Positions 12,001-48,027 of a stretch of 64,000 nt of DNA are shown piece by piece. Made by a program: the position numbers and the translations under genes. A model generated the notes under the pieces. The model saw only the letters and a program-made list of their open reading frames with translations. It had not been told where the DNA came from and made no database searches. Position 1 is the stretch's first letter. Each line of letters opens with the position of its first letter. Source of the DNA: Sedimentisphaerales bacterium (GTDB taxonomy: Bacteria; Planctomycetota; Phycisphaerae; Sedimentisphaerales; Anaerobacaceae). Where the stretch lies: NCBI GenBank assembly GCA_963708075.1, contig OY970194.1:4160001-4224000 (forward strand), given 5' to 3'.

Positions 12001-15000
12001 TCGGGTTGGGGAACGGGATGAACTGGCTGATGATCGTCTCCGGATCAGGGACCAGCAACTGGCCGATGACCTGAGCACCCGCCACGTCCGCTTCGTCAAC
12101 GAGGGTGTCGTCCCAGATGAGCGTGATGGTGTCGAGGGTCGCGACCGCCACGGTATAGTACCCGTCGTTGTCTTCCGTGCCGTAGACGGTGATTGCCTGG
12201 CCGGTGAAGAATCCGTCGAGGAGCCAACTGCCGGTGTCACGCGTGATGGTACCCCAACCGATCGCATTGTGGCCGAAGGTCAGATTCGGGTTGCCGGTCA
12301 TCTCCGGGTCGACCGGAGGAATCAGCGAGGTGTCGGCGCCCGCCTCCATACTGACGGCATTGGCTATGATCACCGTATCCGTGAGGGTGACGCGCGCGAC
12401 CGCGTCCTTCTTCCACCCGAAGACGCCGAAACAGTCTTGGGCATAAGCATTCATCCCGACCCAATCGCCTTTGATAGTCGCGCCTGTAGCCGTGATCGTA
12501 GCACTGGGTCGCGGCGTGCCCGCCCAGCGGACGATACTCGATGCCCAGGCTTCGAGCGTGACGTCGCCTGCCATAAACTCGGCGGCCGCATCCGCGAGCA
12601 GACCGGAGCCCGCTTCGAGCGTGATCGTCCGCGCCCCGAGGTCGATGTCACCGCTGTTTCCGGCAGTCATGCTGGTCGAGAGAACCGCATTCGTCTTAAC
12701 GGTAATTGTGTCCGCTATGACCCCGATATCACCGCCATGACTGGATATGCTGCCCGCGAACACGACGCTATCGACATCGTCATCGCCTACGAGATCTTTC
12801 AGAGAGTCGAGCAAAGAGTCGATCACCAGGTCGATCTCGGCAATGCCGGTTAAGCTCCTCCTGCCGTAAATCTGGAGGTCGGCGGAGAAATCGGCCGGTA
12901 GCGACTCGACGGTGATCGTGTCGCTGCCTTTCCTGCCTTCGATCGTGAGCGACTCCAGGGCTGCAAGCTGCACGATGGAGATCGTGTAGATCGTGCTGCC
13001 CCGCTGTATGTTCAGCCCGGCGTCGTCGGCGTAAACGCGAATCGTGTCGTCGAATGTCGACCCGGTGATGACCGGGTCATTCGCATCGCCGCCTACGAAC
13101 GGCTGCGGGTCGAGGTTGGCGTAGGTCACACCCCCGTACGAGCCCTCGCTGTCGGGGTCCGCAACCTCGACGATCACTCCCGAGATAAGCAGGCCGTCCG
13201 TACCGCCTGTTCCGCCATCAACGCCCACAACACTGCCCCCCGCCTTGATGATGAAAGCGTCGATGTTGTCGGCCCGGCCCGTAAGGTGCTCTATGCCCGT
13301 GAAGTCGCTTTCATGCTCGTTGAACGTCAGCGCACCCGCGTTTGTGCCGGTGACGGTCCAGGTATTGTCGACAACGGGCGCTCCGGTGACTGTGTCATTA
13401 CTGCCTGAGCCGCCCTCGATGGAACCGGAGACGGAGCCTCCACCCTCGAACGCGAAATTATCGTCTCCGACGCCGCCGACAAGATGCTCGACATTGGCGA
13501 AATTCATGCCACCGGCCATGCCGGTGTCCGCACCGCTGATAACCCAATTGGTGCCCGCGTCGGGCCCGTTGATGGTGTCGGTGCCCTCGTGAATATACTC
13601 CACGACCGCCCCTGTGCCATCCTGATCGATATAGTAGATGTCGTCTCCGGCCCCGCCGGCCAGGATATCTCCGCCGGCACCGCCCGTGAGCGTGTCATTA
13701 CCGGCGTTGCCCACGAGAATATTCACGCTGCTGTTGCCGGTCATCTCATCGGCTCCGGAGCCGCCGATGACGTTCTCGATGTTCCACACGCCCCCGGTCC
13801 CCGTGGCGCTGCCCATGGTCAGGTTCACCACCACCGGATCGGTCCAGGTGGAGTAGTCCAGCGTGTCCGACCCGCCCAGGCCGTCAATCGTACCCCCGAA
13901 AGAAACACCGGCCGGGAAGGCAAAGGTATCCTGGCCGCTGCCGCCGACCAGGCTCTCGACGTTCGTGAACACCAAGCCGGTAGTCCCACCCAGGTTCCCG
14001 GCGCCGCTGCCGGTCAGGTTCCAAGTGATGTCCGTCGCGGGCCCCTCAATCCGGTCCGTTCCCTCTTCGCCATCGAAACTCAGGACGCCGCCGGCCACCG
14101 GCAGCGTGAGGTTGTCGGTGGTCTGGACCCGGAGTACATCGTCGCCGGTGCCCGTGGTGATCGTCAGGTTCGCAAGCCCCGTGGCGACCAGGCCGCTCAC
14201 GATGGTGATGCTATCCGCGTCGGACCCCGCCACGTCATGCGTGCCGGTATCGATCACGACCGTCTGGATATTGGTGAAGGTGATGGACTCGAAGGCCACT
14301 CCACCACTGGTTCCGGATATGCGATTCTGGCCCGCCGCGGGACTATCGATCGTGATGACATCTACGCCACCGGGGGTGGTGAAGGTGAGCGTCGAAGGAC
14401 GAGCAGAGGTGTCCAGGCCCGTGGGCCCGGTGCCGGTTACAGTGGCGCCGTCAATAAGAATAGGCTCAAGACCGGTGAAGGAAATCGAGCTGACGCCGGC
14501 TTGAATCGTACCGTCGCCAAAGACTTGACCGGGGGTATAGGTCCCGGCAACCATTCCAAGGATGACCAGTGTGTCGTATCCGCCCGCTCCGCCGTGGAAT
14601 GTCACAGGCAGTGGCAGATCACCGCGGCTCAAATCCACGACGAGCGTATCATCCGTTTCATCCGTCCCCTGGATGATCAGACCGCAGACTCCGCTCTCGG
14701 CCAGCAGTTGAGGCTGGAAATCCCACACATTAATCATCCCTGAAGCGGTCACGGTCAGGTAATTTGCATCCTGCGGGGGAGGGTTCGGAACGTGCAACGT
14801 GTCAATAAGTTGCTCGGTAGAGGACGGCAAGTCCTCGTATGTCACAGGCGACTGCGGATCGCAGACGCCGTCATCGACACCATTACTGATGGGCTCGCCC
14901 TCGTACGCAACGTCGCAATACGATGCCGCAAGCGAGCCACTGTACTGAGACGAGGTCACGCCGGACAGGTCCGTACTCAGCAGTTGGTCTGTTTCAATCC

Positions 15001-15343
15001 CGGATTCAGCCGGTTGGCTGTCAACAATCGTCGAGTCGCTGCCTCCGTTATCGGCCTGCGTCTCATCAGTAGCATTTTGTGTAAGGAACAGTTGAAGACT
15101 GTCGAGCTGGGCGTCAGTCGCACAGTCACTTGTGTCGGTGCTGACCTCTATGGCGGCTACGGGGATAACACTGGCAGTGGGATTGACATCGATGCGAATT
15201 GGATCGACCTCTTCGCTGCCGAACACGGCGGAAAGCAGGAGTCTCGGCTCGAGAGACTCTACGACACAGCCCGCCTGGCGGCCGTCTGTTGTCGCCAGTG
15301 AGCTCTTGCCTGCCCACCACTTCGCCAACCGTCCTATCACCAC
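1..15343 (-). CDS. Giant LEPR-XLL-motif surface/adhesin-like protein (>5,000 aa; 3' end beyond window; one probable 1-nt frameshift near 2248)
   Basis: 4416-aa ORF 2150..15400 with N-terminal VESLEPRLLLSA, GGxGxD RTX-like repeats and long N-x-V-x-A-Y-I beta-helix repeats. Near 2248 restoring one G turns SLSGAAPAPR into SLSGAGAGSENRIATLVQAYI. The same repeat style is read at the window edge (AYLQDSTVDAEGAVTLRAT). Likely start is GTG 15343/15340 after GAGGGGAG. Confidence 0.9.
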
Positions 15344-15702
15344 TACTCCCCTCACACGCACCACGCCGGTACGTGGAGATACCCACCTTCGCCGCGCCAC
15401 GCTCCTTCAGTAGAATATCCCTGCTGAGCCGGCACTCGCAGGTGCCGCTCAAGCTAAGAAATGAATCGGACTGGCTCTGCGGCTCTCACCCTTAGATGCC
15501 TACGTTCGACTCCGACAGTGCCGTCGGGGACGACTGCACACCATGACATCTTAACTCAGGCTGCCCATCTTCGTCAAGGAAAAATCGAGATTTCCTCAAG
15601 GTGAGGCGCACGTCACGCCCATGGGTAGGTTTTCAGGCAGCTAAGGACCTCCGCTCCCAGTCGCTACACACACAGGATCGGCCACTGCCCTGGTGACCCC
15701 GG

Positions 15703-17371: not shown

Positions 17372-17790
17372 GCCATCTGTAAGTGCTTATGGCATAAGGG
17401 TTAATGGCTGCTACATAAGGACTTAGAGGGCTGGCGTAGGTCGCACAGAGGACGAACTGAGGGCCAACGTAGCAGCGTTGGCACACGTTTTTGGCACATC
17501 AACGAGTTGAGAGCACTGACAAGACCGGTCCAGTATCAGCAGCTCCCATCTCAGGAACAGCGGCCCACCGCTACCATGGTTGAGCCCGAGGACCCTTTCC
17601 TGTTTGGCTTCGGCTACGGCTTCGGTAGGACCTCCGCCTACGCCAAACAGGCGGCGGCATTCGCCGCCGGAGTCGCGGAGCCCAACGAGTTGTCTCCGTC
17701 CGCCAGCCTCGCCGATCCGGCTGCTTGCCGCGAGGCCCCTGGAGCCCCGTACGGCGTCGTCCAGAACCGTAAAGATATTCATCCCATCCA

Positions 17791-18887
17791 TCAGGCGGCC
17801 CTCCGATAGAAGTGCAGGAGTCCGCCAAGCCGCTCCTGGCAGACGACTTTGCCTTCCCCTTGCGGAGGCGGCTCGATGATCTCGTTGCCGATACCCTGGT
17901 GAGCCCGCTCCGTATGATAGTGCTCCATGTACTCTTTGATGACGAACTCCAGGTGCCGCTCGCCGAAGATCAGCATCCGATTCAAGCACTCGCTCTTGAT
18001 GCTGCGGACAAACCTCTCGACGATGCAATTTAGGTGCGGTGCCATGGGCAGGGTCCGGATGCACTTGACCCCGGACGACTTCAGGATTTCCCGGAACTCC
18101 TCAGTGAACAGAGGGTCCCGGTCGTGGATCAGGTACTTCTTGTCCTTAAGGAAACCTGAGAATTGATCGGCCAGATTCCTGGCTTTCTGGAGCATCCATT
18201 CGCGATGGGCCTGCTGGATGATACCGGCCACGTTCGCCTTGCGCGTGGCGTAGTCGATAGTGACCAGAACCATGTATCGGGTAAGGCCAGACAGGGTGTA
18301 AATCTCAGTCGTGAAGAAGTCGATAGCCGCCAGAGACTCCCAATGCGACCGTAGGAACTCTGACCAGCGGGTCTCTCTGGCTCGATCCGGACCGGGCGTG
18401 TATCCATTTCGCTTGAGGACATTGTCGATGGTCGTGTGGCAGATGTTGTGCCCCAAGTACTTGAGTTGTCCTTTGATCCTTCGAGAGCCCCAAGTCTTGT
18501 TCTTGCGTGTGATTTGGACGATCAGTTCCTCCATCTCTTCGGAGATTCTCTTTCTACCGGGTGTCCCCTTCTCCTTCTTCTTGCTGCCATCATACTTGCG
18601 AGCGATGAGATTGCGATGTCATCGGAGGATCGTATCTGGGGAGAAGACAGAACAAGCGTCATTCAGGACCGACCGCCCCAAACGTTTGCCAGTCGTGCCA
18701 ATCGCATCCGCTGGTTGTCATTGAGAAGGATTCTCTTGGTGTCGAGCTTCTCGCGTAGAATCTTGTTCTCCTCCTTGAGGTACACAATCACATCCCGCTG
18801 ATGCCGGTTGATCCAGCCGGCCAGCATCATCAGGAGCATGCCCATAGGTTTGACTTTCACCACCACTTCAGCCTTTCCACCTTCCAA
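17791..18887 (-). pseudogene. Integrase-core (rve, DDE) transposase, IS3/IS481-like, inactivated
   Basis: Motifs WGSRRIKGQL, AIDFFTTE, LIHDRD, VERFVRSIKSECL and YHTERAHQG. The N-terminal part (LAGWINRHQRDVIVYLKEENKILRE) is separated by a frameshift near 18685 and an in-frame TGA at 18619-18621 (DTILR*HRNL, where Trp is expected). Confidence 0.85.
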
Positions 18888-19560: not shown

Positions 19561-22500
19561 CTATTCTCTCTGAGGACCGAGTACGATGGGGTGCGCAGCG
19601 TTAGATCCATCAAGAAGTCTCTCGATCAATCGAAATTCAGGGAGAAGGTCCTGATCATGTTCCACGCCCTTGAATGGATTGCCGGTCTGCGGAGTGGCAG
19701 GATTCACCGCCGTAAGCTCTTCACGCGAATAGGGAACGTAAAGCCCAAAACCGATCTTGCCCGTAGCACGCGTCAACCAATCACCGTGCTTGCTCACACG
19801 AATTGGCCGATGCACGTTGTGCTCTCTAAGATAGTTCTTGATCTCTTGTTGATGAAGAAAATGTGGATAAGCACCTTGCGGGCGTTTTGCCAACTTGGCT
19901 GCCTTCTCCTCGTTTTCTGATAACTTTTGCCGCTCCCACACTTCAACCTCAGCGGCAAGTTCCTCAAACGCTCGGCCCAATTGCTTCCGTCGATCGCTCA
20001 TCGCGTACGGAATTACGGGCTGGCCGATGATGTCCCGCCAAAGCGCAACGACAGCGTTTTCGTTGGATCTTCCTCCTGGATCGAGAAACCATTCGCAAAC
20101 AATGCCTGCTTCCTCTATCCGTGTTCGCTGCTGCTCGAACCATGCGGCACACGCCTTGAGTAGATCCGGCTCTCCATGCGACGTGTCGCTCCTCGATTCG
20201 ACCAAAAACATCCTGCCATTCAGCAATGGTGTCAGTCGCTCTGCTTGCGTTCTCTCAATTCCTGGTGGAACTTGTGAGATAGTTTCGAGATCATCGTCAG
20301 GCAAATATTCCCGTCGCTTGAATTCTGCGGTACGTGCTTCGAGAAACTCCTTCACGTTATCTCCGATCAACACACGGGACTTGAGCAAAATAGCCTCATC
20401 GGGAAATGGACTGTGAATCCTCAGCGGAACTGACAGGAGAGGAACGCGATCGTCTAATGGCCAGAACGCATCTCTATATTGCGGGTCCACATCTGTTTTT
20501 ACGGCGATAAGGGCCGTATTTTCATCAGTCCGCAAGCTTGGAAGGATGCGCCCATTTCTTCGCGAGGCCAAAATGATGCATCGGTGAATGCCCGCCCAGC
20601 GGAGCATTGAGATCCATGACAGTGTGAAACCTTGGGGCAAACTCGCCCATTGCGCTACTTCGATTCTGTCGGTCCCAGGTGTATAGCCCGGGTACCGCAG
20701 CCCACGGTAGTAGGCGTGGCTACTCCCTGTCAGCCGCTTCGTCGGTCCATAGACCAAAGCATATGCGAGCATATCCCGCATCACGGCTTCAAGGAGTGGT
20801 TTGCTGAAAGGATACATTTCGGTTGCCAAGCGATCCCGTGTCAGGGTCAGTGGCAATGCCCCGTCTGGATCGAAGATCGAAACTGAAGGCACTTTCAGGC
20901 ACAAGGACTCCTCTGTTGACTTGTCGCTCCCCAAATGTGTCTTGCCATTTGTGGAGAGTGTATGCCACTTGACTCCCCTATCGCGCTCCATGTCCCCAAT
21001 CGTGATGCCGTTGCATGTCAATGTGGTCCCGTATTCTTCATAGGTCCATTGGATGTCCGTAAAGGGCTGATACGTGATTCGTCGCCACTTCAACGGTAGA
21101 GTTGCGCCTTCGGAAGGAAGCCAATTGTCATTATGGTCATTGAAATCGCCTGACCGATCAGTGTCTTCACCGTTACGAAGGCGTTTGACGACCGGATCAG
21201 ACAACCGATACCAATTCCACTCAAAACGAGAACTGTCGCCAAGGGGAGCAGAAAGCCTGACCCTAACTGTTGTTCCAATCTCCCGGCGCGCATGAAAGAG
21301 GTCAATTGACTCGTCTTCAAGGCGGGCCGTGAACTGGATGGCACGAGCAGAGGAATAATGCCGAGTGATGACCTGCAATTGTTCGCCCAACAAGAAAGCT
21401 GCAAGTGCGCCGACGCCAAAGCGACCGCTGCGGAGGACTTTGGAATGCCCGTTTGCGTCAGTGAACAACTTCTGCCAATCCGAGGAACGGCGATATGTAG
21501 CACCGGCCTTCAAGAAGAAATCTCGGACGATCTCAGCAGTCATTCCGATGCCGCGGTCAGCAACTTCGAACCAGTGAAGCCAATCCGATGGCGGACCGCC
21601 ATTTTCGGGCGTCGGTGTTTTCTCATCACGGCTGCATTCGGCGAGAATCACATCCGCATTGGGGAATCGAGAGTCGATGGGCGCAAAACTCGATTTACTC
21701 TCGAACGATAAAGCTCGCCGTTCCCGAACGGCGTCGAGCGCGTTTTGCAGCAACTCACGCACGCCAATGCCGGGGCTATCCCCATACAACGGCTTGACGA
21801 GCAATTTCAAGTATTCGCCTTGTGCGGTATCGAAGGCGGCGCGACAAGGCACGAACGTCAACTTTGATTCAAAACTCTGATCATAGAGATTCGATTTCAC
21901 TCGCCGTAAGCTCAACCACAATCGTGACAGGCGATCATAACGGCCATAGACCTCACCCAACACGGTCCAGCCGTGATCAAGCTCGGATTGAAGCATTTCG
22001 TGCCATTGCCGTAATCGAAACAGGGTCGACGCGATGAAGACTTCGCTCGGTTGGACATCAATGCAGACGGCTTCAGGGTCTTCATCGACATTGAGCCGAA
22101 CATCAAAAATTGCCTGATGAGACTCCTGTTCGCGCCGAGAGTAAGGGCTGGCAAGCTTCTGAATCAAGGCACGGGAGCCCGCTGCACGCTCGGCGTGTAC
22201 GTGCAACACATCGGCAACGCGCAGCACTGCCATCAGGTACACGACGTGTGTCCCGCGACTCTCTCGAAGATTGTTGGAGTGGTGGCGTGAGAGATAGCCA
22301 AATGTGTCGCGCAACTGCATGCCGTGTGAGCGAGATACCAGCCCGATCAAATCCCTCAGTTCCGGCGATACCATCGAGGAATCACTAACAATCAGTTGTG
22401 GGCCGTCATTGCCCGGCCATCCGTAACAAGCAATCTCATGAGCCAGGCGATGATGATGTCTCCGAATGAACTCTCCGATGAGCAGTGTTTGGCACTCGGT

Positions 22501-23055
22501 CAGTGGCTCGTTGCAGCGTACGATATGTGTTAGATGTTGTGTTGATTTGCTGTGTGACCATGGCAATTCGCCGAACAGCCGGCGAATCGTTCGCTCCCCC
22601 CAATGCCGCGATTCTTCAAGGTACATTTCCCATAAGGCGTGCCACGGCTGGTCCAACGCCTTATCGATCAATGGGCGAGCAGCACCGTCTATGAGTTCTG
22701 CAAAGGCCGCTTGCGTGAGGAACATCCCCATATCGTGGTACAAAACCGCGCCCGTTAGCACAAAAACGTCCTCCGCTGAGGTAACATCCCAACTATTGGG
22801 CCGGCCAAAACCACCAGTACATATCAAAAACTCGGCAAGGTGGGCAACGCGTAAGAGATGTTGTATCCCGTGGTCGGTGTATTCAGGAAAGAAGGTCATT
22901 CGAGGATGCTTACCAAGCCAAGCCACGTAGTGGCTGTAAGCAGCGTCAAGCAGCGGATAGCAGTTGCCGGCTTTTTGTTCTATTCTAGTCGGCAGTATCT
23001 GCTTGATGGGCAAATTCGGTATATCATTATGGCGTTCAACTGGCATTCGAACCAT
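19561..23055 (-). CDS. HD-CE phosphohydrolase fused to an Hsp90-like GHKL ATPase (conflict/defence-type protein, ~1160 aa)
   Basis: HD-CE motifs FFPEYTDHGIQH, LYHDMGM, RRHHHRLA, SHG, LRVAD; GHKL motifs LYGDSPGIGVRELLQNALDA, DRGIGMT, GRFGVG, GTTV. The start codon is uncertain (23103/23055/23046). Confidence 0.85.
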   Translation of the reverse strand: MVRMPVERHNDIPNLPIKQILPTRIEQKAGNCYPLLDAAYSHYVAWLGKHPRMTFFPEYTDHGIQHLLRVAHLAEFLICTGGFGRPNSWDVTSAEDVFVLTGAVLYHDMGMFLTQAAFAELIDGAARPLIDKALDQPWHALWEMYLEESRHWGERTIRRLFGELPWSHSKSTQHLTHIVRCNEPLTECQTLLIGEFIRRHHHRLAHEIACYGWPGNDGPQLIVSDSSMVSPELRDLIGLVSRSHGMQLRDTFGYLSRHHSNNLRESRGTHVVYLMAVLRVADVLHVHAERAAGSRALIQKLASPYSRREQESHQAIFDVRLNVDEDPEAVCIDVQPSEVFIASTLFRLRQWHEMLQSELDHGWTVLGEVYGRYDRLSRLWLSLRRVKSNLYDQSFESKLTFVPCRAAFDTAQGEYLKLLVKPLYGDSPGIGVRELLQNALDAVRERRALSFESKSSFAPIDSRFPNADVILAECSRDEKTPTPENGGPPSDWLHWFEVADRGIGMTAEIVRDFFLKAGATYRRSSDWQKLFTDANGHSKVLRSGRFGVGALAAFLLGEQLQVITRHYSSARAIQFTARLEDESIDLFHARREIGTTVRVRLSAPLGDSSRFEWNWYRLSDPVVKRLRNGEDTDRSGDFNDHNDNWLPSEGATLPLKWRRITYQPFTDIQWTYEEYGTTLTCNGITIGDMERDRGVKWHTLSTNGKTHLGSDKSTEESLCLKVPSVSIFDPDGALPLTLTRDRLATEMYPFSKPLLEAVMRDMLAYALVYGPTKRLTGSSHAYYRGLRYPGYTPGTDRIEVAQWASLPQGFTLSWISMLRWAGIHRCIILASRRNGRILPSLRTDENTALIAVKTDVDPQYRDAFWPLDDRVPLLSVPLRIHSPFPDEAILLKSRVLIGDNVKEFLEARTAEFKRREYLPDDDLETISQVPPGIERTQAERLTPLLNGRMFLVESRSDTSHGEPDLLKACAAWFEQQRTRIEEAGIVCEWFLDPGGRSNENAVVALWRDIIGQPVIPYAMSDRRKQLGRAFEELAAEVEVWERQKLSENEEKAAKLAKRPQGAYPHFLHQQEIKNYLREHNVHRPIRVSKHGDWLTRATGKIGFGLYVPYSREELTAVNPATPQTGNPFKGVEHDQDLLPEFRLIERLLDGSNAAHPIVLGPQRE

Positions 23056-23306
23056 TATACATGTTTTTAGCGAGTTGCACTCGTGGACGATGAGGAACAG
23101 CAATTAGTAGTTGAGGAACCCGCCGTCCTCCGCCATCCGTGCTCCGTCCTCCATTCTCTGCGTTTGGGTGGTGAAGAACTCGGCGGGCGAGCCCCACCGT
23201 ACCGTCCTCGTTCTCCGCGGTGAGGAATCCGTATTCATCTTGTGTGAATCCGTGTCTCCTCTGCGTCCCCCGGCGTTCTCTGCGATGAAATCCCGCACCA
23301 CTGGCG

Positions 23307-27520: not shown

Positions 27521-28000
27521 TCACTCTTCTTCCGGGGCGCCGGGGGTGAAGCAGACGAGGGCGATCAGGACCAGACCGGCGCCGGCGATGAACAGGGTGA
27601 TTCGCTTGGGGGGATCGCTGCACCGTTGCAGCCAGACTGGGATTTCCGGGGCGTCGGGCTCCTGCTCGGCCTCCGCTACCAGGGCCTTTCGGGCAATCGC
27701 CAGCTCGCCGGCCCGGGCCTTGGGATAGACGGTGTTCGGATCGTTGGGCTCGGTCCCCAGGGTCACAGGCACGATGCGCTGGAGCAGGTCAGGGTCCTTC
27801 TCCAACTCCTGCAACAGGGCATCATACTCGGCGTTGAGCGACTCAAGCTGTTTGAGGGACGATTGTGCTTCCCGGAGATAGCTCTTGTTGCGGCAGTACT
27901 GGGTGAAATCATCGCACAGGACCGCCCCGCCCAGCGCGACGGCACCGATGCTGAAGAACACCACAAAGAAAAGGAGGTGGAGAATCCCTTGCCTCTGCAT
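27521..28000 (-). CDS. Membrane protein with coiled coil, FtsB/DivIC (septum formation initiator)-like
   Basis: N-terminal TM, heptad coiled coil, LEKDPDLLQRIVPVTLG resembling the FtsB L..DP..IE..AR..LG motif, and a second C-terminal TM. Confidence 0.6.
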   Translation of the reverse strand: MQRQGILHLLFFVVFFSIGAVALGGAVLCDDFTQYCRNKSYLREAQSSLKQLESLNAEYDALLQELEKDPDLLQRIVPVTLGTEPNDPNTVYPKARAGELAIARKALVAEAEQEPDAPEIPVWLQRCSDPPKRITLFIAGAGLVLIALVCFTPGAPEEE

Positions 28001-28264: not shown

Positions 28265-31014
28265 TTATACGGGGTAAACCGGCAGTTGGGCCCGGAGCAG
28301 CTCGTAGATGGTCTTGCCGCTCTTGACGCACACCGCCGCACTCTGGCGATACTGGGTGGTAAGCTGGTCGAAGTCCAGCTTCTTGAGATCCGCCAGACTC
28401 TTTTTGCCGCCGTTGGCCACGATGAACTTGGCCATGGTGTCGCTGGCGATGTCCCGCATGAGCTGCCAGAGCTCCCGGCCGTCCGCCGCCGCGACCGCCC
28501 GGCCCAGGGCCAGCGACATCGACAGGATGGCGTTCATGCCCAGCAGGCCCTTGCGCTGCATGGCGTGGATCTTCTCCTCTTTCGAGGCGTCCTTGCTGAT
28601 CCGGCCGGCAGCGATCGCCTGCTCGAGTTCCAGCCCGAGGAGCTGACGGTCGGTGTCGAGGAGCGAGCCCAGCGTACCGACTCGCTTGCCGACGAAGGCC
28701 TTGGCGAGCACGGTTTCGATGTGCTGGACGGCGTCCATGCAACCCTTGCCGTCGTATCGCCGGGACTTCTTCCAGAGGGCCATGAGCTTCTCATCGTTCT
28801 TGGCCCGGACCGCGTCCACCTTGACGTCCTTCTTGAATCGGAAGGTGCCGTCGCCGGCGGCCTTGAACAGGTCGGGATACTTCTTGACCGTATCGGACGG
28901 CTCGATGATGCTGTCCACATAGTGGATGGCTTCGTCCTCGCCGGCGCTGGTGCCCAGAGGGGTCGAGCCCTTGAAGCGAATGATGCCGCTTCGGCCGAGG
29001 AACAACGTGGCGGCCGCCGACGGGATACCGGCGTTGGTCGCCTCTTCCGTACCACTGACGGCCTCGATGGCCAGCATCTTCATCAGGAGGCTGGTCAGAT
29101 CGATGTCGCCCGCCTTCGCGGAGATGGTGCAGTCGTCTTTGCCGGTGAGGATCTTGACCAGCTCTTTGACGCTCTCTTCGATTTCCTTGCGCTCTTTGGC
29201 TGTCGTTTCGCGCTGCGAGGCTCGAGCCAGGGCGAGGATTTCCATCATGCGCCCGTACTTCTGGAGGCGTTCGGTGTTGGCGCCGCCGCCGCACTTGACG
29301 CCCAAGGCGTTCATCGCGGTGCCGATTTCCGCCTCGAACGGGTCGTTCGGGCTCTTGGACCGGTGGGAGATCACCAGCTCGGCGCCGTAGGCCAGCGAGG
29401 TCAGCATGGCCAGCACGGTCTCGGTCAGGGTTCCAATCTGGTTGGCCTTGATCAGCGAGGCGTTGATTTCGCCGTTCTTGGCGCACTTTTCAATGTTCGA
29501 GTCCTTGGTGGTGACCAGGTCGTCGCCGATGATGAAGATCTTGTCGCCAAGCTCTTTCACCAGGTTTTTCCAGCCCTGGTGGTCGCGCTCGCCGAATCCG
29601 TCTTCGATGGACAGGATCGGGATGCCTTCTTCCATGGACTTCTTGAAGAGGTCCAGGATCTGGTCGCGGCTCATCTCGACCTTGCTCTTGTCGCGCCAGA
29701 AGCGATACATGCCGACGGAATCGGGCTCGCCGCGCTCCTCGCGGTAGGCGTTTTCGAGCTCGGAGCACGCCGGGTCCAGAGCGATCGCGACATCGACGCC
29801 GGGGACCCACTCGCAGTCCAGAATGGCCTGCTTCATGAAGCGCCACATGCGCTGCTCAGGCACCTGGTCTCCCTCTGCCTTATCGACGTAGGGTGCGATG
29901 CCGCCTTCGAGGCCGACACCCATGACCTTGCGCCCGGGGCCGACTCGATGATTTCCTTGAGCCGGTACTGGAGCTTCACGGTCATTTCCTGGGCGTCTTC
30001 GTAGGTCTTCGGGGAAAGCGGCATGAACATGCTTTCCTGCATGGAAATGTTGCTTTCGGGGTATTCCTTCTCGGTGTGCCGGCCGCCCATGGCGCAGTTT
30101 CGGAACTGCCACGGGGCCGCAACGCGGTTGCCGTCCTTGAGGATGATCTGCTGCATGCGCGTGGTCAGCAGCCTCTGCTTCACGGCAGCGACCTGCACGG
30201 GCCAGCTCTCCTTCGAGGCAGCCGCAGCCGCGCGGGCCGCCTGCTCGGCGGCGATCTTCTCGCGGGTGCGGAACTCGCGGAGCTTGCCGGGGTCGGCCAG
30301 CAACCGGTCCAGCATGCCCACGCAACCGGGAGCCAGGAAGAACCGGCCGACGTAGACGAAGAAGTCAACGCCGGTGGAAAGGCCAATGGCGATGAGCACG
30401 ATAGCCGCCGGCAGGCAAACCGCCGCCAGGTATCCGCTCCACACGGGGGCCGACGCCGCGACGGCCAGGTTGTACGGGGCATCGGGGACGAAGTTGCCAT
30501 GCTCTTTCTTGACGCCGTAGAACTTGCCCCACGGAATCAGCAGGAGCATCTGGGCGTAGTAGCCGAACTTACTGCCGCTGCTCTTGAGGATCGCATCGGC
30601 TTTCTCCTGGGAATCCTTATTCAAAGCCGTCAGCTTCGCGGCCGTGAGGAAGTGTCCCATTTCGTGGACGGCAATGGCGATATGCCACGACAGGTAAAGA
30701 ACGGCCAGCGAGATCCACACTTCGATGTGGGTCGGCAGGAACATGAACTGCAGCACGACGGACTTGATGTTCACGCCGGCCTCGGCCTGCTGTCGCAGTT
30801 GCTCGGCCGGCAGGCTCAGCACGGAGGAAATGAAGGCAGCGTGGAAGGAAACCAGCTTGTGGTTCGCGATTACCCAGCCGCGCTCCAGGGCCATCCGCTG
30901 AAGGCCCGCCGCACGGTTCGGCCTGCGGAATATATCACGCACCGCCTGCCACCCGCGGCGCACGATCCCGTTGTTCCGGTGGACTCCCACCTCTGACTCT
31001 GCCAGTTGACTCAT
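28265..31014 (-). CDS. M50-peptidase-like membrane domain fused to a circularly permuted enolase (~916 aa; 1-nt frameshift near 29930)
   Basis: HEMGH in a TM helix; then barrel motifs GGRH, MQESMFMP, VGLEGGIAP, ALDPACSE, SIEDG, GDDL, LIKANQIGTLTET, SHRS, VKCG, ERLQKY; then enolase N-domain motifs PLGTSAGEDEA, RYDGKG, LGMNAILSMSLA. ORFs 29833..31032 and 28265..30325 join at ESAPGA|KVMGVGLEGG. AAGGAG RBS precedes ATG 31014. Confidence 0.88.
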
Positions 31015-31366
31015 TCTCAACTTCTCCTTCATCTATAGCTCGACCCATGTCGGCATTTCAGCCCCAACTGAAAGGCTCATGGGCTCTTACCACCTTGCAG
31101 GACGTGCCTCGTGAAGCCATCCCCCACTTGTCGTGGATTGATGGTTGCGGACTCACCATCTTCCGTGATCCGCCACCAATCCGACCTCCGCAGTCGCTAC
31201 GGGCCCGTGCCATTCCCCGCGCTCGGGGAACACAGAACCATACGAATTCCGCGCGAGAAAGTCAATAGCGATTCCGCAAAGTTCATAGGAGAATCGCGGG
31301 ATTGTGCCGGCGAAGAACGGCGGCGGGACAGCAGCAAACGAAAGACACTCGAAAATGCCATCTGTC

Positions 31367-31696
31367 TTGGGGACCACAGCCTCGCTGTCCCCAAACCCCT
31401 GAGATTTTTCGCTTTGCGCCAACAGCATGGTAGGAGAATGAGGCTGCCCAGTTGCCCTGCCAGCTTCCCATTTTGCTGCCAGGGGCCTTGGGGTAATCTG
31501 CCTTCTGCGGTCGCTTGCCGGCGAGGAGCATCGATGGTATTCTTGCACGTGCCGTTGCGGAGGACAGGGCTCTGCTGAGAAGCAACCCGAGCGCCGTAAC
31601 GGTCCAATGGCATAGCGATGCCGCTTCTTCGGGGCATCGCTCTTCATATCGATGCTGTTGGCAAAAAGCGAAAAATCTCGGGGGTCCGGGGGCAGA
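31367..31696. repeat. Inverted pair of ~45-60-bp palindromic elements (ATGCTGTTGGC..AAAGCGAAAAATCTC.GGGGT..GGGG.CAG)
   Basis: 31367-31428 is the reverse complement of 31652-31696; the right copy is completed at 33284-33294 after the IS. Confidence 0.75.
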
Positions 31697-31697
31697 G

Positions 31698-33282
31698 AGG
31701 CTGTGAAGAAATCGGTCTTGACGGGGATGGTAGAATAACGGGCATGAAAGAGCAAGGAACTCTGCCGGGAATGGAATCTCAGGTTAGTGAGATGGAACAA
31801 GATTCGAGAGACTGTGTGCCTGCGGGTCCGTTGCGGTTTCGTCGGCCGGACCGGTCACAAACGCGGATGGTTCCGTTGTCCCTGGAAGAGACGATCCCGC
31901 CGGGCCATCACGTGCGGGTGCTTTGGGCCGTGGTGGAGCGGCTGGACCTGTCGAAGTTTACCGAGGGACTGAAGGTCAGTGAGGGACAGGCCGGGCGGTC
32001 GGCGACGGACGTTCGCTTGCTGGTGGCATTGTGGTTGTATGCGGCGACCCAGGGGGTGGGCAGCACGCGGGAGTTGGAGCGGCTGTGCGAGCATCATGCG
32101 GCGTATCGCTGGCTGTGCGGCGGGGTTGGCGTGAACTATCACACGTTGAGTGATTTTCGCGTCAGTCATGAAGAGGCGTTGGACGGTCTGATGACCGAGG
32201 TGCTGGCGATGCTGATGGAGCGTAAGCTGGTCAGCGTGCATCGGATCAGCCAGGATGGGATGCGTGTGCGGGCCAGCGCCGGCAAAGGCAGTTTTCGACG
32301 GGAGCGGCGATTGAACGAGTTGCTCGACCAGGCCAAGGGCCAGGTGGAAGCTCTGAAGGCCCAGCGGGAGTCGCCCGCCCTTACGGATCGCCATGCGCGG
32401 CAGGTGGCGGCGAAAGAACGAGCGGCTCGAGAGCGGCTGGAGCGAGTGGAAAAGGCGCTGGGGGCCTTGGAGGAGATCAAGAAGGTCAAAGCCCAAGCGC
32501 GGAACAATCAGCGGGACAAACCCAGCCCGCCGCGTGCCTCGACGACCGACAGTGAAGCCCGTGTGATGAAAATGCCTGATGGCGGCTTTCGTCCAGCCTA
32601 TAACCTGCAGTTTGCCAGCGACACGCAATCGCGGGCGATCCTGGGCGTGGACGTGACCAACGCGGGCACGGACAAGGCCGAGAGTGCGCCGATGCGTGAG
32701 CACGTCGAGGAGCGTACGGACGGCCAGGTGAAGGAGCACTTGATGGATGGAGGCTTTGTCAAGTTGGAGCAGATCCAGGCGGCCGAGCAGGCGGGTGTAC
32801 GCATCTACGCTCCGCCGCAGGGCGGTCGAGGGTGTGTGGACCCCTGTCAGGTGCGTAAGACGGACAGCCCTGAGATCGCCGCCTGGCGGACGCGCATGGC
32901 CAGTGAAGAAGGCAAGAGCATCTATAAGGAACGGGCGGCGACCAGTGAGACGGTCAACGCCGATCTGCGGACCTATCGCGGGTTGGCTCGATTGCTGGTC
33001 CGTGGGCTGCACAAGGTGCGTTGTGTTGCGCTGTGGTCTGCGCTGGCGTACAACATGATACATTTTGGTGAGGCATTATTGGTGGGCTGAGAGTCCAAAA
33101 GGGGCATAGAGTACCGCCCCAGGGCCCGATCGGGCCGGCTGCTGAACTGATGGAGGTTTGGACAAGACAGATCGACCCCTGAACGAACCTGAATAGACTG
33201 AGATCTACAGAATGAACAAGGACCGATCAGGTCGCAGAGATGCAGTCGAACCATCACAGTAATTCGAATTCTCTCACAGCCT
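31698..33282 (+). mobile_element. IS1182-family insertion sequence
   Basis: Terminal inverted repeats AGGCTGTGA / TCACAGCCT with CAGAG on both flanks (31693-31697 and 33283-33287). Confidence 0.88.
31744..33090 (+). CDS. IS1182-family transposase
   Basis: LEETIPPGHHVR, LLVALWLYA, AYRWLCGG, YHTLSDFR, QDGMRVRASA, STTDSEARVMKM, PAYNLQ, LMDGGF, YKERAATSE. The start codon is uncertain. Confidence 0.92.
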   Translation: MKEQGTLPGMESQVSEMEQDSRDCVPAGPLRFRRPDRSQTRMVPLSLEETIPPGHHVRVLWAVVERLDLSKFTEGLKVSEGQAGRSATDVRLLVALWLYAATQGVGSTRELERLCEHHAAYRWLCGGVGVNYHTLSDFRVSHEEALDGLMTEVLAMLMERKLVSVHRISQDGMRVRASAGKGSFRRERRLNELLDQAKGQVEALKAQRESPALTDRHARQVAAKERAARERLERVEKALGALEEIKKVKAQARNNQRDKPSPPRASTTDSEARVMKMPDGGFRPAYNLQFASDTQSRAILGVDVTNAGTDKAESAPMREHVEERTDGQVKEHLMDGGFVKLEQIQAAEQAGVRIYAPPQGGRGCVDPCQVRKTDSPEIAAWRTRMASEEGKSIYKERAATSETVNADLRTYRGLARLLVRGLHKVRCVALWSALAYNMIHFGEALLVG

Positions 33283-33456: not shown

Positions 33457-33993
33457 GTGCAGTCTGATGCAGAATTGATCGAAAGTGTCCTGGCGGGCCG
33501 GGAGCAGGCGTTTGAGCTGTTGGTCAAACGCTACGAGCGATCGGTCCGTGCGACGGCCTTGCACGTCGTGAAAGACCGTCACCTGGTCTTCGATATCGCC
33601 CAGGAGTCGTTCCTGAGGGCCTACCGGCAGTTGGGCCACCTCCAGCAACCGGCGGCTTTCGGGGCCTGGCTCCTGCGGATCACCCATCGTTGTGCCCTGG
33701 ATGCACTGAAAAGAAGGCCCAACGAGGTTCCGCTGGAGCTGGATGAGAGCCTCGGCGTGGCGCCGGAGAGCCGTGACGGGCAACTCGAAGAGGACAAGCG
33801 GGAACTGCTGGCGGCAGTCATGCAACTGCCGGCCGCCGAGCGACAAGTCGTCATGCTTCGGTATTTTGACGGTCATACCGTCAAAGAGGTCGCGAGAATC
33901 GCCGGCCGAAGCGTCGGCACAGTCACCAAACAACTGTCCCGGGCCCACAGACGCCTGCGGAGCATGGTTAAGGAGTTGTACGATGCCTCCTGA
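33457..33993 (+). CDS. ECF RNA polymerase sigma factor
   Basis: SDAELI, AFELLVKRY, DIAQESFLRAY, FGAWLLRI, VKEVARIAGRSVGTVTKQLSRA. Confidence 0.93.
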   Translation: MQSDAELIESVLAGREQAFELLVKRYERSVRATALHVVKDRHLVFDIAQESFLRAYRQLGHLQQPAAFGAWLLRITHRCALDALKRRPNEVPLELDESLGVAPESRDGQLEEDKRELLAAVMQLPAAERQVVMLRYFDGHTVKEVARIAGRSVGTVTKQLSRAHRRLRSMVKELYDAS

Positions 33994-35428
33994 GAAGAAT
34001 ATCGAAGAGAGATTGCAGGAACTGGGCCGGGCCGTGGGCGGGAATGACTCGCTCACCAGGGCGGTAATGGCCCGCATCCGCACAGGGCAGATCGCTGCGT
34101 CAGACGAGGACTCCCAATCAAGGATTCAACTCGTTGTCAGGAGATTGATCATGAACAGAACCATGAAGTTCACTACTGCCGCGGCGTTGATCATTGTCGC
34201 GTTCGTTGGCGCAGTCAGCTTTCTGGACAGGTTCGGGGCCTCGGCTTACGCCGTGGAACAAACCATCGAGGCCCTGCACAACGTCCGATATATGCACATC
34301 GTCAAGTATGATAAAGCCGGAAACCTTGAAGATGAGCGATGGGAAGAGATCGATCCGAACGGCTATCAGGCCCGATATCGCCAGAACACGCCCTCCCATT
34401 TGTTCTACGTGGTGGACGACCGCAAGACCGTCATGGTCTACCACGCCGGCAAGGACAAAAACACGGCCATCCTCTACGATCCCAAGGAGCAGTCCTACAC
34501 ATGGCATTACGCCCCCGGCAAGATGTTCGATGAGATCGCCGAAGGCAAACCGGCCTATGCCGTCGTGGCTGAGAACGTCCAGTACAAAGGTCGGCCTGCA
34601 CACCATCTGCGAATGGTGGCCTTGGATTGGGACGTGTATATCGATCCAAAGAGCAAGCTGCCGATGGCCATCGGGGACTATGAAGTCAGCTACGAGGAGC
34701 CCCCTCAAGGCACGTTCGACATCGCGATTCCCGAAGGCGCCATCGTGGTGGACAAGCGACCCGGCGCGACACCGGGGCCGGAGCCGCTGTGGATGGTGCA
34801 GGAGCGGGAGAAGAAGGAAGCGGCCAAGATTGCCCAAGGCTATTTCGAGCAGGGCAGGCGGGCCCTGGCTGCGGGCCAGTACGCAGCCGCCGTGGACGCA
34901 CTGACGGAGTCGCTGGAGCTCTCGCCTGGACGCAATTGGGCCCAGTTCTGGCTGGGCAAGGCGCTTTATGAGTCCGGCCGCTATGATGAGGCTATCTATC
35001 GGCTTACGAGAGTGATCGAGATGACGAGTGAACACGGCTTGCAGATCCCCTCCTATTATTTGGCCAGAGCCGTGGCTTTCCAGGGCAAGGGAATGACCGA
35101 TATGGCACAGATCGACTTCGAGAAGGCTCTGCCAAAGATGATAGAGGCCTTGCGAAACTCTGAAGCAGCGGGGTCCTTCGACCTTGCCGACGATCCCCTG
35201 CGGTGTGCTGACGGCATGAGGGAAGACTGCCATGGAGCCCCGACGCCGGAGCAGAGCCTGGTCATGATGATCAACCGCTTGCGAATCCTCACCGGGCAGA
35301 ACTTCGGCTACGACCCCAGTGCCGGCGAGGAGGAAAAGGAACGGGCCATCTCCGCCTGGGAGCAGTGGTCCAAGGATTCAGGCCGGTTCAAGTTCACGCC
35401 GGATGCCAAGCTGATTCCTGTCCCATAG
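33983..35428 (+). CDS. Probable anti-sigma factor: TM helix, LolA-like region and TPR repeats
   Basis: ATG 33983 with AAGGAG RBS overlaps the sigma gene end; TM AAALIIVAFVGAVSFL; TPR-like YFEQGRRALAAGQYAAAVDALTESLELSP and AQFWLGKALYESGRYDEAI. Confidence 0.75.
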   Translation: MPPEKNIEERLQELGRAVGGNDSLTRAVMARIRTGQIAASDEDSQSRIQLVVRRLIMNRTMKFTTAAALIIVAFVGAVSFLDRFGASAYAVEQTIEALHNVRYMHIVKYDKAGNLEDERWEEIDPNGYQARYRQNTPSHLFYVVDDRKTVMVYHAGKDKNTAILYDPKEQSYTWHYAPGKMFDEIAEGKPAYAVVAENVQYKGRPAHHLRMVALDWDVYIDPKSKLPMAIGDYEVSYEEPPQGTFDIAIPEGAIVVDKRPGATPGPEPLWMVQEREKKEAAKIAQGYFEQGRRALAAGQYAAAVDALTESLELSPGRNWAQFWLGKALYESGRYDEAIYRLTRVIEMTSEHGLQIPSYYLARAVAFQGKGMTDMAQIDFEKALPKMIEALRNSEAAGSFDLADDPLRCADGMREDCHGAPTPEQSLVMMINRLRILTGQNFGYDPSAGEEEKERAISAWEQWSKDSGRFKFTPDAKLIPVP

Positions 35429-35515: not shown

Positions 35516-35805
35516 CTCATCTTTAATGCGACCAGGGGCATTTTCTTTCGCGAATTTGCTGTAACGTTTCTTCGCACTTAACGTCTATGTGTATAGAGAG
35601 AACTTAACGCTGCACACTTTCGCAGGGATGCAAGGGCTATCGCGGGTCGCTTCAGTCGTCCGCCGCGGCAAAATCATCGCGGAGGACCGGCTGCGGGGCA
35701 CTCTGTCGAACACCTTACCTCCTTTCACTGTTGGGCCGACTGGCGGAGGTCGGCCTTTGTTCTTGCGCATTGATTCCCCTGCCGCCAGCCTCTACAATGG
35801 TTCTC

Positions 35806-36519
35806 ATGCGAATCCCATTGACCAAGTATGGATTGCCCCAGGTGGTCATCTATCCGCTGACCTTCCTTGCGGCGATGATTGCGTATTTCATGATTGCCCT
35901 GCAGTACTTCCCCGATTGGGCCGTGCAGACTTCGTGGGTATTTCTGACCGTGTCGGCGGTCGAGCTGGTGTTTTTTGCATTGCTGGTGTGGTCCCTGAGC
36001 TTCTTTCGAGACCCTCAGCGGGAGATCCCCCGGGATGGTAACCTGCTTCTGGCCCCCGCCGACGGTACGGTAAGAGATATCGAGATCGTGGACGAGAAGG
36101 ACTTCATCGGCGGCCCGGCGCTGCGAATTGGCGTCTTTTTGAGCGTTTTCAACGTCCATATCAACCGTTGCCCCTGTGACGCGAAGGTCGAGAAGATCAC
36201 CTATCGTCGGGGCAGGTTCCTCAACGCGATGAATCCGTTGGCCGGCAAAGAGAACGAGTCGAATGACATTGCAGTGGTTCGGACGAAGCGGCCGAACGAC
36301 CACCTTCTTGTCCGCCAGATCAGCGGGGCGATCGCCCGGCGGATCGTCTGTGCCGCCCGGGTCGGACAGCCGCTTGCCGCCGGCGAGCCGTTTGGCATGA
36401 TCAAATTTGGCTCCCGCACCGAACTTTACGTTCCCGCCGGCGAATATATAGAATGTCTCGTGCGGATCGGGGACAAGGTCAAGGCGGGCATCACACCGAT
36501 GGTAAGGTATCGCGATTGA
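35806..36519 (+). CDS. psd: Phosphatidylserine decarboxylase proenzyme
   Basis: FFRDPQR, APADG, VFLSVFNVHINRCP, QISGAIARRI, GMIKFGSRTE (GS autocleavage motif). Confidence 0.95.
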   Translation: MRIPLTKYGLPQVVIYPLTFLAAMIAYFMIALQYFPDWAVQTSWVFLTVSAVELVFFALLVWSLSFFRDPQREIPRDGNLLLAPADGTVRDIEIVDEKDFIGGPALRIGVFLSVFNVHINRCPCDAKVEKITYRRGRFLNAMNPLAGKENESNDIAVVRTKRPNDHLLVRQISGAIARRIVCAARVGQPLAAGEPFGMIKFGSRTELYVPAGEYIECLVRIGDKVKAGITPMVRYRD

Positions 36520-36562
36520 CGATTTACCATTTGTGATTTACCATTTGTGAGTACGAGACGAC

Positions 36563-37516
36563 ATGCAAAAATCGGGCCAGGAGTTGGTAACAGGAATGAA
36601 CGGCAAACATCAGTTCGCGAATCATAAGCCGAAGGGCCGGCTGTTTCGGCGGGTCCGCCGGCAGCGCGTCAAGTATATCACGGTGTTGCCCTCGCTGATC
36701 ACCATCCTCAACGGCGTGTTCGGCTTCACCGCCATCATGTTCGCCAGCAAGAGCGGGGACGCAAGCACCGCCCGCGTCTCCCATTTTGCCGTCGCCGGGT
36801 ACATGGTCCTGCTGGCCATGTTCGCCGACATGCTCGACGGCAGACTCGCACGGATGAGCCAATCGACCTCCAGCTTCGGCGGCCAGTTGGACAGTCTCTG
36901 TGACCTGGTCAGCTTCGGCGTAGCACCGGCGTTCCTCATGCTCAAGCTCGTAGAGAGCGAGCTGGCGTTGACGGGCGAGCTGCACCACGACATCCTGTAT
37001 CGCTTCGTCTGGCTGGCGGCCCTGGTCTACATAAGCTGTGCGGCGATCCGCCTGGCCCGTTTCAACGTGGAAAACGACGAAAATGAGGCCGCTCATATGA
37101 GTTTTGCCGGCCTGCCCAGCCCGGCGGCGGCGGGCGTGGTCGTCAGCCTGGTCCTCTTCCACCAGGAGGAGTTGCCGGACATGAAGCTGCTGGTCTATGC
37201 CCTGCCCTTTTTCGCCCTCACCGCGGGCATCCTCATGGTCAGCCGAATTCGATACCCGCACGTCGTAAACGTGTATCTGCGAGGAAAGCAACGGTTCAAC
37301 TACCTCATCAGGGTGCTGTTATTCCTCGGCCTGGTCGTCTGCATGAAGCAGACCGCCTTGTTTCTGATCTTCACCACCTATGCGGGCGGCAGCCTCGTCA
37401 AATGGCTCTATTTCAAAGCCACCAGGCAGAAGAGCCGCCTTGCCCCGGTCACCGCAGATCTTGCCGCGGGTACTGCCGGCGCAAACCCGTCCTACGGTCC
37501 GCACAGCCCGGAGTGA
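36563..37516 (+). CDS. pssA: CDP-diacylglycerol--serine O-phosphatidyltransferase
   Basis: DMLDGRLARM...FGGQLDSLCDLVSFGVAPA, RLARFN, FAGLPSPAAA; follows psd. Confidence 0.95.
   Translation: MQKSGQELVTGMNGKHQFANHKPKGRLFRRVRRQRVKYITVLPSLITILNGVFGFTAIMFASKSGDASTARVSHFAVAGYMVLLAMFADMLDGRLARMSQSTSSFGGQLDSLCDLVSFGVAPAFLMLKLVESELALTGELHHDILYRFVWLAALVYISCAAIRLARFNVENDENEAAHMSFAGLPSPAAAGVVVSLVLFHQEELPDMKLLVYALPFFALTAGILMVSRIRYPHVVNVYLRGKQRFNYLIRVLLFLGLVVCMKQTALFLIFTTYAGGSLVKWLYFKATRQKSRLAPVTADLAAGTAGANPSYGPHSPE

Positions 37517-46658: not shown

Positions 46659-46662
<4 letters not shown>
45934..46662 (+). CDS. MacB/LolD-type ABC ATP-binding protein
   Basis: [36 protein letters not shown]. Confidence 0.96.

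Positions 46663-48027
<1,365 letters not shown>

Follow-up and report, generated by a model that had tools for sequence, protein, structure and literature searches.

A 64,000-nucleotide stretch of the closed chromosome of a Sedimentisphaerales bacterium (GenBank assembly GCA_963708075.1, contig OY970194.1, positions 4,160,001 to 4,224,000; the whole stretch is called the window here) contains at 28265 to 31014, on the minus strand, one gene for a fusion of a permuted enolase, with the barrel before the cap, and a membrane domain. The ~916-amino-acid (aa) product is probably an inner-membrane protein that joins a divergent M50-type domain to a complete enolase, so that the cell's working glycolytic enolase is tethered to the membrane. 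In the proposed arrangement, a basic N terminus and four membrane helices would form an M50 (site-2 protease)-type domain, from which a conserved helical linker would lead to the complete enolase in the cytoplasm. The cap has moved behind the TIM barrel, a circular permutation placed where the two domains naturally meet, and ~50 aa now bridge the old termini. The permuted enolase most likely carries the glycolytic conversion of 2-phosphoglycerate (2-PG) to phosphoenolpyruvate (PEP) at the membrane surface, since it is the only enolase in this bacterium. It has taken the place of the resident canonical eno gene, and another canonical copy has decayed to a relic. Enolase activity, the cytoplasmic placement of the enolase, and any protease activity are predicted from sequence.

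The gene is covered by two overlapping minus-strand open reading frames (ORFs) in different frames, at 29833 to 31032 (399 aa; frame A) and at 28265 to 30325 (frame B). The initial annotation had read them as a single protein of ~916 aa after the repair of one base missing near 29930, and both parts of that proposal were borne out, the length by uninterrupted homologues of similar size and the missing base by the frame junction and by the sequences of relatives. A tblastn search with the intact homologue P0001 covered 31014 to 29926 and 29941 to 28268 of the window, and the 2.7-kb gene was 93% identical in protein to P0001, with no further stop or frameshift. Met7 of the ORF (31014) was taken as the start; a further ATG upstream of it (31032) is likewise open. 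In the genome's own annotation, only a 527-aa piece (P0002) was called for the enolase gene.

At the junction, the homologous part of frame A ended with KEIIESAPGA (29929 to 29958), and frame B restarted with KVMGVGLEGG (29900 to 29929). Because the two frames share base 29929, exactly one base is missing. Intact homologues read across the junction as KEIIESAPGAKVMGVGLEGG (...SAPGAKVMGVG...). Contigs of relatives from two RNA-library runs (one contig in X15 and two in X16) carried an extra base, G on the plus strand, behind 29929, although contig cover of the locus in such runs is not evidence of transcription. Among the read runs compared, the best one contained a fraction of 0.48 of the words. 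The gap is very probably an indel error of the assembly, because the same 64 kb contains another gene split likewise, a MacB/FtsX-type ABC permease at 46515 to 48027 (+) that falls into overlapping frames at 46515 to 47534 and 46909 to 48027. Ahead of this permease gene are an intact HlyD-type gene and one for an ABC ATPase.

The enolase assignment was examined first with Pfam profiles. Enolase_C was matched in two parts, with profile positions 5 to 60 at the end of frame A (E = 0.058) and positions 61 to 277 at the start of frame B (E = 2.1e-39), and Enolase_N (positions 52 to 130) was matched behind the barrel in frame B (E = 3.1e-8, 34.3 bits). The barrel-before-cap order given in the initial annotation was thus recovered from the window pieces themselves. 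The Enolase_C cut-off of 21.5 bits was passed by both the window piece (136.1 bits) and P0001 (162.1 bits). For Enolase_N, with a cut-off of 35 bits, the window piece and P0001 (32.7 bits) fell slightly under, and the distant members P0178 and P0148 exceeded it at 76.8 and 71.7 bits.

The catalytic motifs GGRH, MQESMF, GLEGG, ALD, SIEDG, GDD, IKANQIG, SHRS, VKCG, and PLGTSAG were all found in the window, in agreement with the intact catalytic set described earlier for this gene. This full set of predicted catalytic motifs is far beyond chance. In P0001 numbering, the equivalents are His313, Glu327, Glu370, Asp414, Glu471, Asp498, Lys523, His551-Arg552-Ser553, Lys574, and Ser690, the counterparts of which in yeast enolase we take to be His159, Glu168, Glu211, Asp246, Glu295, Asp320, Lys345, His373-Arg374-Ser375, Lys396, and the loop residue Ser39. 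In an alignment of 26 full-length members reaching as low as 26% identity, the catalytic His, both Glu residues, the three Mg ligands, the Lys base, the His-Arg-Ser triad, the second Lys, and the loop Ser were invariant or conserved at 90% or above.

A sequence search of solved structures matched enolases to P0001 residues 299 to 593 (E = 7.6e-39). The AlphaFold2 (AF2) model of P0001 (pLDDT 83.9, pTM 0.80) comprised a barrel at ~300 to 600, a helical linker at 606 to 647 with low confidence at 629 to 638, a beta-rich cap at ~649 to 870 with an insert, and a helical tail. When this model was searched with Foldseek, enolases ranked at the top (E ~1e-16, 2.1 to 2.5 Å over ~298 columns, TM ~0.6 of the target), which supplies the superposition on enolase called for earlier; only the barrel was covered, which is what a sequential aligner would give with a permuted protein. 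By eye, LPVYPV at the C terminus and AAPWQF at the barrel start resemble duplicated remnants of a canonical "LPVP" junction, as a duplication-deletion route would leave, but this candidate was rejected as resting on resemblance only.

A search with the enolase part matched 7,816 proteins of 8,000 candidates at E ≤0.001. Among the 120 best homologues of the window protein, 107 were uninterrupted, 875 to 954 aa long, and 77 to 94% identical, and the other 13, including the window's 527-aa piece, were shorter. These homologues came from Sedimentisphaerales and Phycisphaerae metagenome-assembled genomes (MAGs) and were named "enolase" (JGI) or "hypothetical protein" (NCBI). A phmmer search of the full library with the first 300 residues, i.e., the membrane domain, returned 123 cluster representatives, of which 36 (33 long and 3 short) were scanned against Pfam. 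Enolase_C directly followed the membrane domain in 32 of the 33 long representatives (541 to 2607 aa); Enolase_N was detected in 27 of these and lay behind the barrel in every one. The named members among the representatives belonged to Eiseniibacteriota, Planctomycetota, and Omnitrophota. In a scan of one genome per species, relatives were present in 205 of 599 candidate stretches, and the best 80 of these 205 were mostly from Phycisphaerae and Sedimentisphaerales, with others from WOR-1/Margulisiibacteriota, WOR-3, Aminicenantes, and Fermentibacterales, all of them MAGs.

The 60 barrels placed in a quick maximum-likelihood tree fell on the two sides of one branch (SH-aLRT 100, length ~1.8 changes per column), 43 permuted sequences on one and 17 canonical ones on the other. 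Because they split on one long branch, the family is probably an old paralogue that arose by a single permutation event. The Sedimentisphaerales sequences formed a shallow group nested among other phyla within the permuted clade of this quick tree, and an origin of the permuted gene in situ from the resident eno was ruled out on that ground. Literature listings and the opening lines of abstracts contained no description of a permuted, membrane-fused enolase.

The genome forms a single closed contig of 7.5 Mb, in which a canonical eno elsewhere was looked for, as proposed in the initial annotation. No second enolase was found there by six-frame searches with the Enolase_C and Enolase_N profiles or by tblastn queries with two canonical enolases, with the exception of a 50-residue in-frame relic of canonical type outside the window (G000:C1:17677-17826, plus strand). 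The relic consists of ~20 N-terminal residues (65% identical to relatives) joined to ~30 residues of barrel helix (59%; genome-wide tblastn, E = 3.7e-6), with the rest deleted, and is, judged by its sequence, a deletion relic of a second canonical enolase copy. The genome encodes PGK, iPGM, pyruvate kinase (PK), and PPDK.

Enolase_C was present in 99 of 101 genomes of the order, nearly all of the hits being canonical enolases of ~435 aa. The long form within the order was limited to the window's family, where it occurred in six genomes: alone in this one and in G040, G049, and G077, and together with a divergent canonical copy in G025 and G089. In the genus, the permuted form was detected in 23 of 24 genomes (three as partial matches); a canonical-type copy was also present in 13, a decayed or partial one in 4, and none in 7. 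The four decayed or partial copies showed a stop codon, an internal deletion, a split, and contig edges, one each. In other lineages, both forms occurred in G109 and G110 (WOR-1) and in G111 (Aminicenantes), and only the permuted form in G112 (WOR-3).

The position of the gene also bears on its role. A 159-aa gene lies directly downstream of the canonical eno in eight relatives and directly downstream of the permuted gene in four, as it does here, and it does not adjoin the second canonical copy. The permuted gene thus occupies the ancestral eno locus, having displaced the resident eno there. That this eno could be displaced, and that the other canonical copy was dispensable, is a strong argument for enolase activity of the permuted protein. 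The 159-aa product has an FtsB/DivIC-like look but no Pfam or NCBIfam support for this, and it is not so named.

The AF2 model of the membrane domain (pLDDT 87.7) had four long helices along with two amphipathic ones and a short beta-hairpin. HEMGH was located in the model helix 64 to 94, and HExGH and the Asp pair stood at the same ends of helices 2 and 4, which are predicted from the model to be the cytoplasmic ends. Across 33 diverse sequences, the conserved elements were GWVIANHxLVSFHxAF, HExGH, PxGxFxGV, NLAVxAAGPxxS, and GRxxxxxGxVxxLDxxxADxG. HExGH was kept in 31 of the 33, being lost in P0169 and altered in P0188. The LD Asp was invariant in alignment A5 and conserved at 90% or above in alignment A2, and the ADPG Asp was invariant.

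Kinship to M50 had been proposed from three motifs, HEMGH, NLAVAASAP, and LDRLLADPGK, all of which were confirmed, as were the coordinates first reported. Comparison by hhalign with seven ordinary M50 proteins from this genome and relatives gave 88.7%, and 88.9% with a richer alignment (E = 2.4e-6, 113 columns). It paired HExxH, the GGV strand/hairpin, AGP, and the ADPG Asp with the M50 LDG Asp, at low confidence in the Asp stretch, so that all three proposed parallels were aligned, as remote homology below the Pfam cut-off. A sub-threshold Pfam M50 match at E ≤0.1 was obtained for 21 of 27 members, and no other family recurred. In VIA-align, an RseP orthologue (7w6z_A; Z 6.4, 5.2 Å, 118 residues aligned) and MjS2P (3b4r_B; Z 6.4, 3.1 Å, 101 aligned) ranked 2 and 3 of 48,161 chains. 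The nearest clusters in a protein language model were all M50, M50B, or S2P (scores 0.88 to 0.89), which was taken as a lead only. A search of solved-structure sequences with alignment A2 was swamped by enolases, its long rows having added barrel columns, and a profile of the membrane domain only found nothing among those sequences beyond one chance match (E = 0.94). Besides the enolase fusion, the genome contains four ordinary M50 genes. The domain may best be described as a divergent M50-type domain that has kept its putative metal ligands, related to the family by remote homology and not a member in good standing, and its M50-like site would be expected to bind zinc.

Several observations weigh against reading the gene as an intact, membrane-tethered housekeeping enolase with an M50-type domain. 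In the given assembly the gene is out of frame, and the closest, near-identical run (X1) had no contig over 29842 to 29964. With respect to the enolase, P0001 scored only 197.5 bits against the NCBIfam eno equivalog TIGR01060 (cut-off 300 bits), compared with 705.5 bits for the canonical eno of a relative in the same family (L016), and the barrel is ~33% identical to canonical enolases of that family. In genomes from other lineages a canonical-type enolase coexists in three of five, as it does in 13 of the 24 within the genus, so across the family the housekeeping role does not have to belong to the permuted form. With respect to the membrane domain, the Peptidase_M50 profile (cut-off 27.2 bits) gave 15.5 bits (E = 0.011) for the window piece and 16.2 for the window domain, and the best score among the relatives scanned was 25.4 bits. 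The expected profile order of M50, Enolase_C, and Enolase_N was recovered, with the M50 score and, narrowly, the Enolase_N score under their cut-offs. The VIA-align Z of 6.4 is below 8 and in the chance range for helical bundles, and Foldseek with the membrane-domain model found nothing in the PDB at E ≤0.001 (best E = 0.31), with no S2P among the matches listed. In the M50 element NxxPxxxLDG, no N was conserved and the P occurred only in Phycisphaerae members.

With the same weaknesses of the M50 match in view, the protease-like domain might serve solely as an anchor, an M50 relic that has lost catalysis and tethers a working enolase. This is possible, if doubtful. It would accommodate the scores below the Pfam cut-off, the lack of NxxP, the window's SAP in place of the family AGP, and the two members in which HExxH is not kept. 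Opposed to it are the H, E, H, and D residues, which are invariant in members only 33 to 50% identical, and the conserved cytoplasmic helix after the Asp, which argues for a functional site. Because the metal-site residues appear to be under selection across phyla, the domain is probably more than a passive anchor and may be a working intramembrane metalloprotease or a metal-dependent regulatory module.

A bolder proposal would give both modules full activity in one polypeptide, a glycolytic enolase and an active intramembrane zinc protease. The cap, placed in this scheme directly behind the ligand-bearing helix, would open and close with substrate and so gate the active site in the membrane, glycolytic flux, as 2-PG/PEP occupancy, would directly set the rate of regulated intramembrane proteolysis, and the larger relatives would hand PEP to a fused dikinase. 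This combined scheme is considered unlikely.

The initial annotation had offered two functions, a membrane-tethered enolase and a protease that senses 2-PG or PEP. The first is favoured here by the sole enolase, the closed genome, and the ancestral locus. Under the second, the main job of the protein would be regulated proteolysis within the membrane, gated by a metabolite, and the enolase would be a 2-PG/PEP sensor instead of a metabolic enzyme, by analogy with the CBS domains that serve as cytoplasmic sensors in some site-2 proteases. Invariance of HExGH and the aligned Asp across phyla in all but 2 of 33 members is consistent with this, as are the long stem branch from the canonical enolases (~1.8 changes per column) and the coexistence of canonical enolase with the fusion in many lineages, as for a specialised paralogue; the proposal fits better where the canonical enolase is kept. 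However, the fusion is the sole enolase both here, where the genome is closed, and in G040, G049, G077, and G112, a sensor would not need all of the catalytic residues, including the Lys base and three Mg ligands, at 90% conservation or above, and across 80 loci no conserved substrate-like or sigma/anti-sigma partner gene adjoined it. A sensing protease is accordingly judged quite unlikely for this bacterium.

The frame break could instead be a genuine one-base deletion, which would make the gene a pseudogene in this strain, with no protein made. The assembly as given and the single 527-aa piece in its annotation are in line with that, but a pseudogene would leave the genome with PGK, iPGM, PK, and PPDK and without any enolase. 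The remainder of the 2.7 kb shows no other break and closely matches P0001, and the split permease in the same 64 kb points to assembly indel errors, which makes a real deletion very unlikely. An assembly chimera, in which fusion and domain order would be artefacts, has nothing in its favour beyond the frameshift and is of practically negligible probability: the initial annotation had named homologues that are never fused or permuted as the sign of misassembly, and misassembly is excluded because over 100 metagenome and genome assemblies, independent of one another and drawn from several phyla and sources, with closed chromosomes among them, show the fused, permuted order.

The membrane-tethered working enolase thus being preferred, the features of the gene are collected in Table 1.

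Table 1. Features of the permuted enolase gene and its downstream neighbour, in window coordinates
Feature	Position	Strand	Basis or remarks
Whole gene	28265..31014	-	~916 codons and a stop (28265-28267), with one missing base bridged in the reading
Site of the one-base gap	29929..29930	-	GC-AAG in the window vs GCC AAG (Ala-Lys) in relatives
Membrane domain, M50/site-2-protease-like, with basic N terminus	30283..30897	-	AF2 model, conservation, hhalign, VIA-align
HEMGH, putative zinc ligands and catalytic Glu	30652..30666	-	Invariant in alignments A2, A3, and A5; aligns to M50 HExxH
NLAVAASAP, equivalent of the M50 "AGP" helix motif	30445..30471	-	Family consensus NLAVAAAGP
LDRLLADPGK	30283..30312	-	ADPG Asp invariant, aligns with the zinc-ligand Asp of M50 LDG
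Conserved helical linker, predicted cytoplasmic, from membrane domain to barrel	30121..30282	-	Model helices 244-265 and 271-284; conserved F, E, A, and A columns
Enolase TIM barrel	29216..30120	-	Pfam, matches to solved enolases, catalytic residue equivalents
Helical linker of ~48 aa, old enolase C terminus to old N terminus	29072..29215	-	Model helices 606-624, 633-636, and 640-647; pLDDT <50 at 629-638
Enolase N-terminal (capping) domain after the barrel, with insert of ~45 aa	28406..29071	-	Loop Ser in PLGTSAG, RYDGKG, LGMNAILSMSLA
C-terminal helical tail, ending ...QLPVYPV	28268..28405	-	Homologue comparison, model
Downstream co-oriented gene, 159 aa, transmembrane segment and coiled coil	27521..28000	-	Marker of the ancestral eno locus

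The recurring neighbours at the 80 loci were housekeeping genes only, namely a psd and pssA-like pair, rnc, a STAS protein, and two small transmembrane/coiled-coil proteins; no conserved candidate protease substrate or sigma/anti-sigma pair stood beside the gene at these loci. In relatives the psd/pssA-like pair lies ~0.5 kb upstream of the gene. Here it is at 35731 to 37513, which amounts to an insertion of ~4 kb, and between it and the enolase gene are a DDE transposase (DUF772 and DDE_Tnp_1; 31618 to 33090, plus strand) and an ECF sigma factor with a TPR protein (33457 to 35425, plus strand). At the WOR-3 loci L128, L130, L131, L132, and L137, a conserved 555-aa membrane protein is encoded ~70 bases downstream of the permuted enolase gene. 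Elsewhere in the window, on the minus strand, a giant 4416-aa ORF at 2153 to 15400 had an RTX calcium-binding repeat as its sole Pfam match, and an 809-aa ORF in another frame (3 to 2429) overlaps it by ~277 bases; the two could be one larger gene with another frame break. Also on that strand are a 1180-aa protein with an HD-CE domain (19564 to 23103; PF24391, E = 4.8e-35) and two overlapping ORFs at 17426 to 18534, one with an integrase core (rve_3), which resemble an IS3-type element in its usual two-frame layout.

Enolase is among the most conserved and best-studied enzymes, and a natural permutation combined with fusion to a membrane protease-like domain, replacing the canonical gene at its own locus, was unexpected. 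The family offers a natural test case for the constraint on domain order in a two-domain TIM-barrel enzyme. Because the eno equivalog cut-off is failed, annotation pipelines label these proteins "hypothetical," and in Sedimentisphaerales, WOR-3, and further uncultured anaerobes the enolase will wrongly be reported as missing when metabolism is reconstructed. A conserved putative metal site beside an enzyme of central metabolism suggests a testable link from glycolysis to regulated intramembrane proteolysis or to a membrane-localised supply of PEP, and such a link between glycolysis and the membrane is supported by the recurrence of dikinase fusions in other phyla.

Compared with canonical enolase (EC 4.2.1.11; Enolase_N and Enolase_C; TIGR01060; PDB 1iyx, 4a3r, and 1w6t), the window protein has a barrel of 30 to 34% identity that superposes at 2.1 to 2.5 Å, a recognisable cap, equivalents of all catalytic and Mg-binding residues, and the same locus as the eno of relatives. 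Canonical enolase, however, is a soluble protein of ~430 aa with the cap first, whereas the window protein has 916 aa and a membrane domain, runs from barrel to cap with a ~50-aa linker joining the old termini, bears a ~45-aa insert in the cap, and belongs to a separate clade on a long branch. Like the site-2 proteases of family M50 (MjS2P, 3b4r; the RseP orthologue, 7w6z; PF02163), it has HExxH within a membrane helix, and after it come a short beta-hairpin, an AGP-type helix, and a conserved Asp that hhalign puts on the LDG ligand, at low confidence in that stretch. It differs from them in the additional conserved N-terminal motif GWVIANHxLVSFHxAF and the lack of NxxP, and, while some site-2 proteases bear soluble CBS or PDZ domains, the soluble part fused here is a whole metabolic enzyme.

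The giant relatives (P0134, P0178, and the P0129 cluster; Eiseniibacteriota, Omnitrophota, and others) match the window protein in membrane domain, permuted enolase, and the order of these parts and fall in the same clade, but have added PPDK-type ATP-grasp and phosphohistidine swivel domains, none of which occur in the window protein. In P0139 (6041 aa), P0134, P0178, and P0141, the module lies in the middle of proteins of 2000 to 6000 aa with long stretches that match no Pfam family; the additions in P0134 and P0178 are PPDK_N and PEP-utilizers (the swivel) domains, and P0141 had a weak GPI match. No dedicated counterpart of the fused dikinase partner was found in this genome, where the best match to that part was an ordinary full PPDK at 32% identity. 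As the window protein has no dikinase domains and the best genomic match is this ordinary PPDK, its lineage appears to represent the minimal, two-module form of the family.

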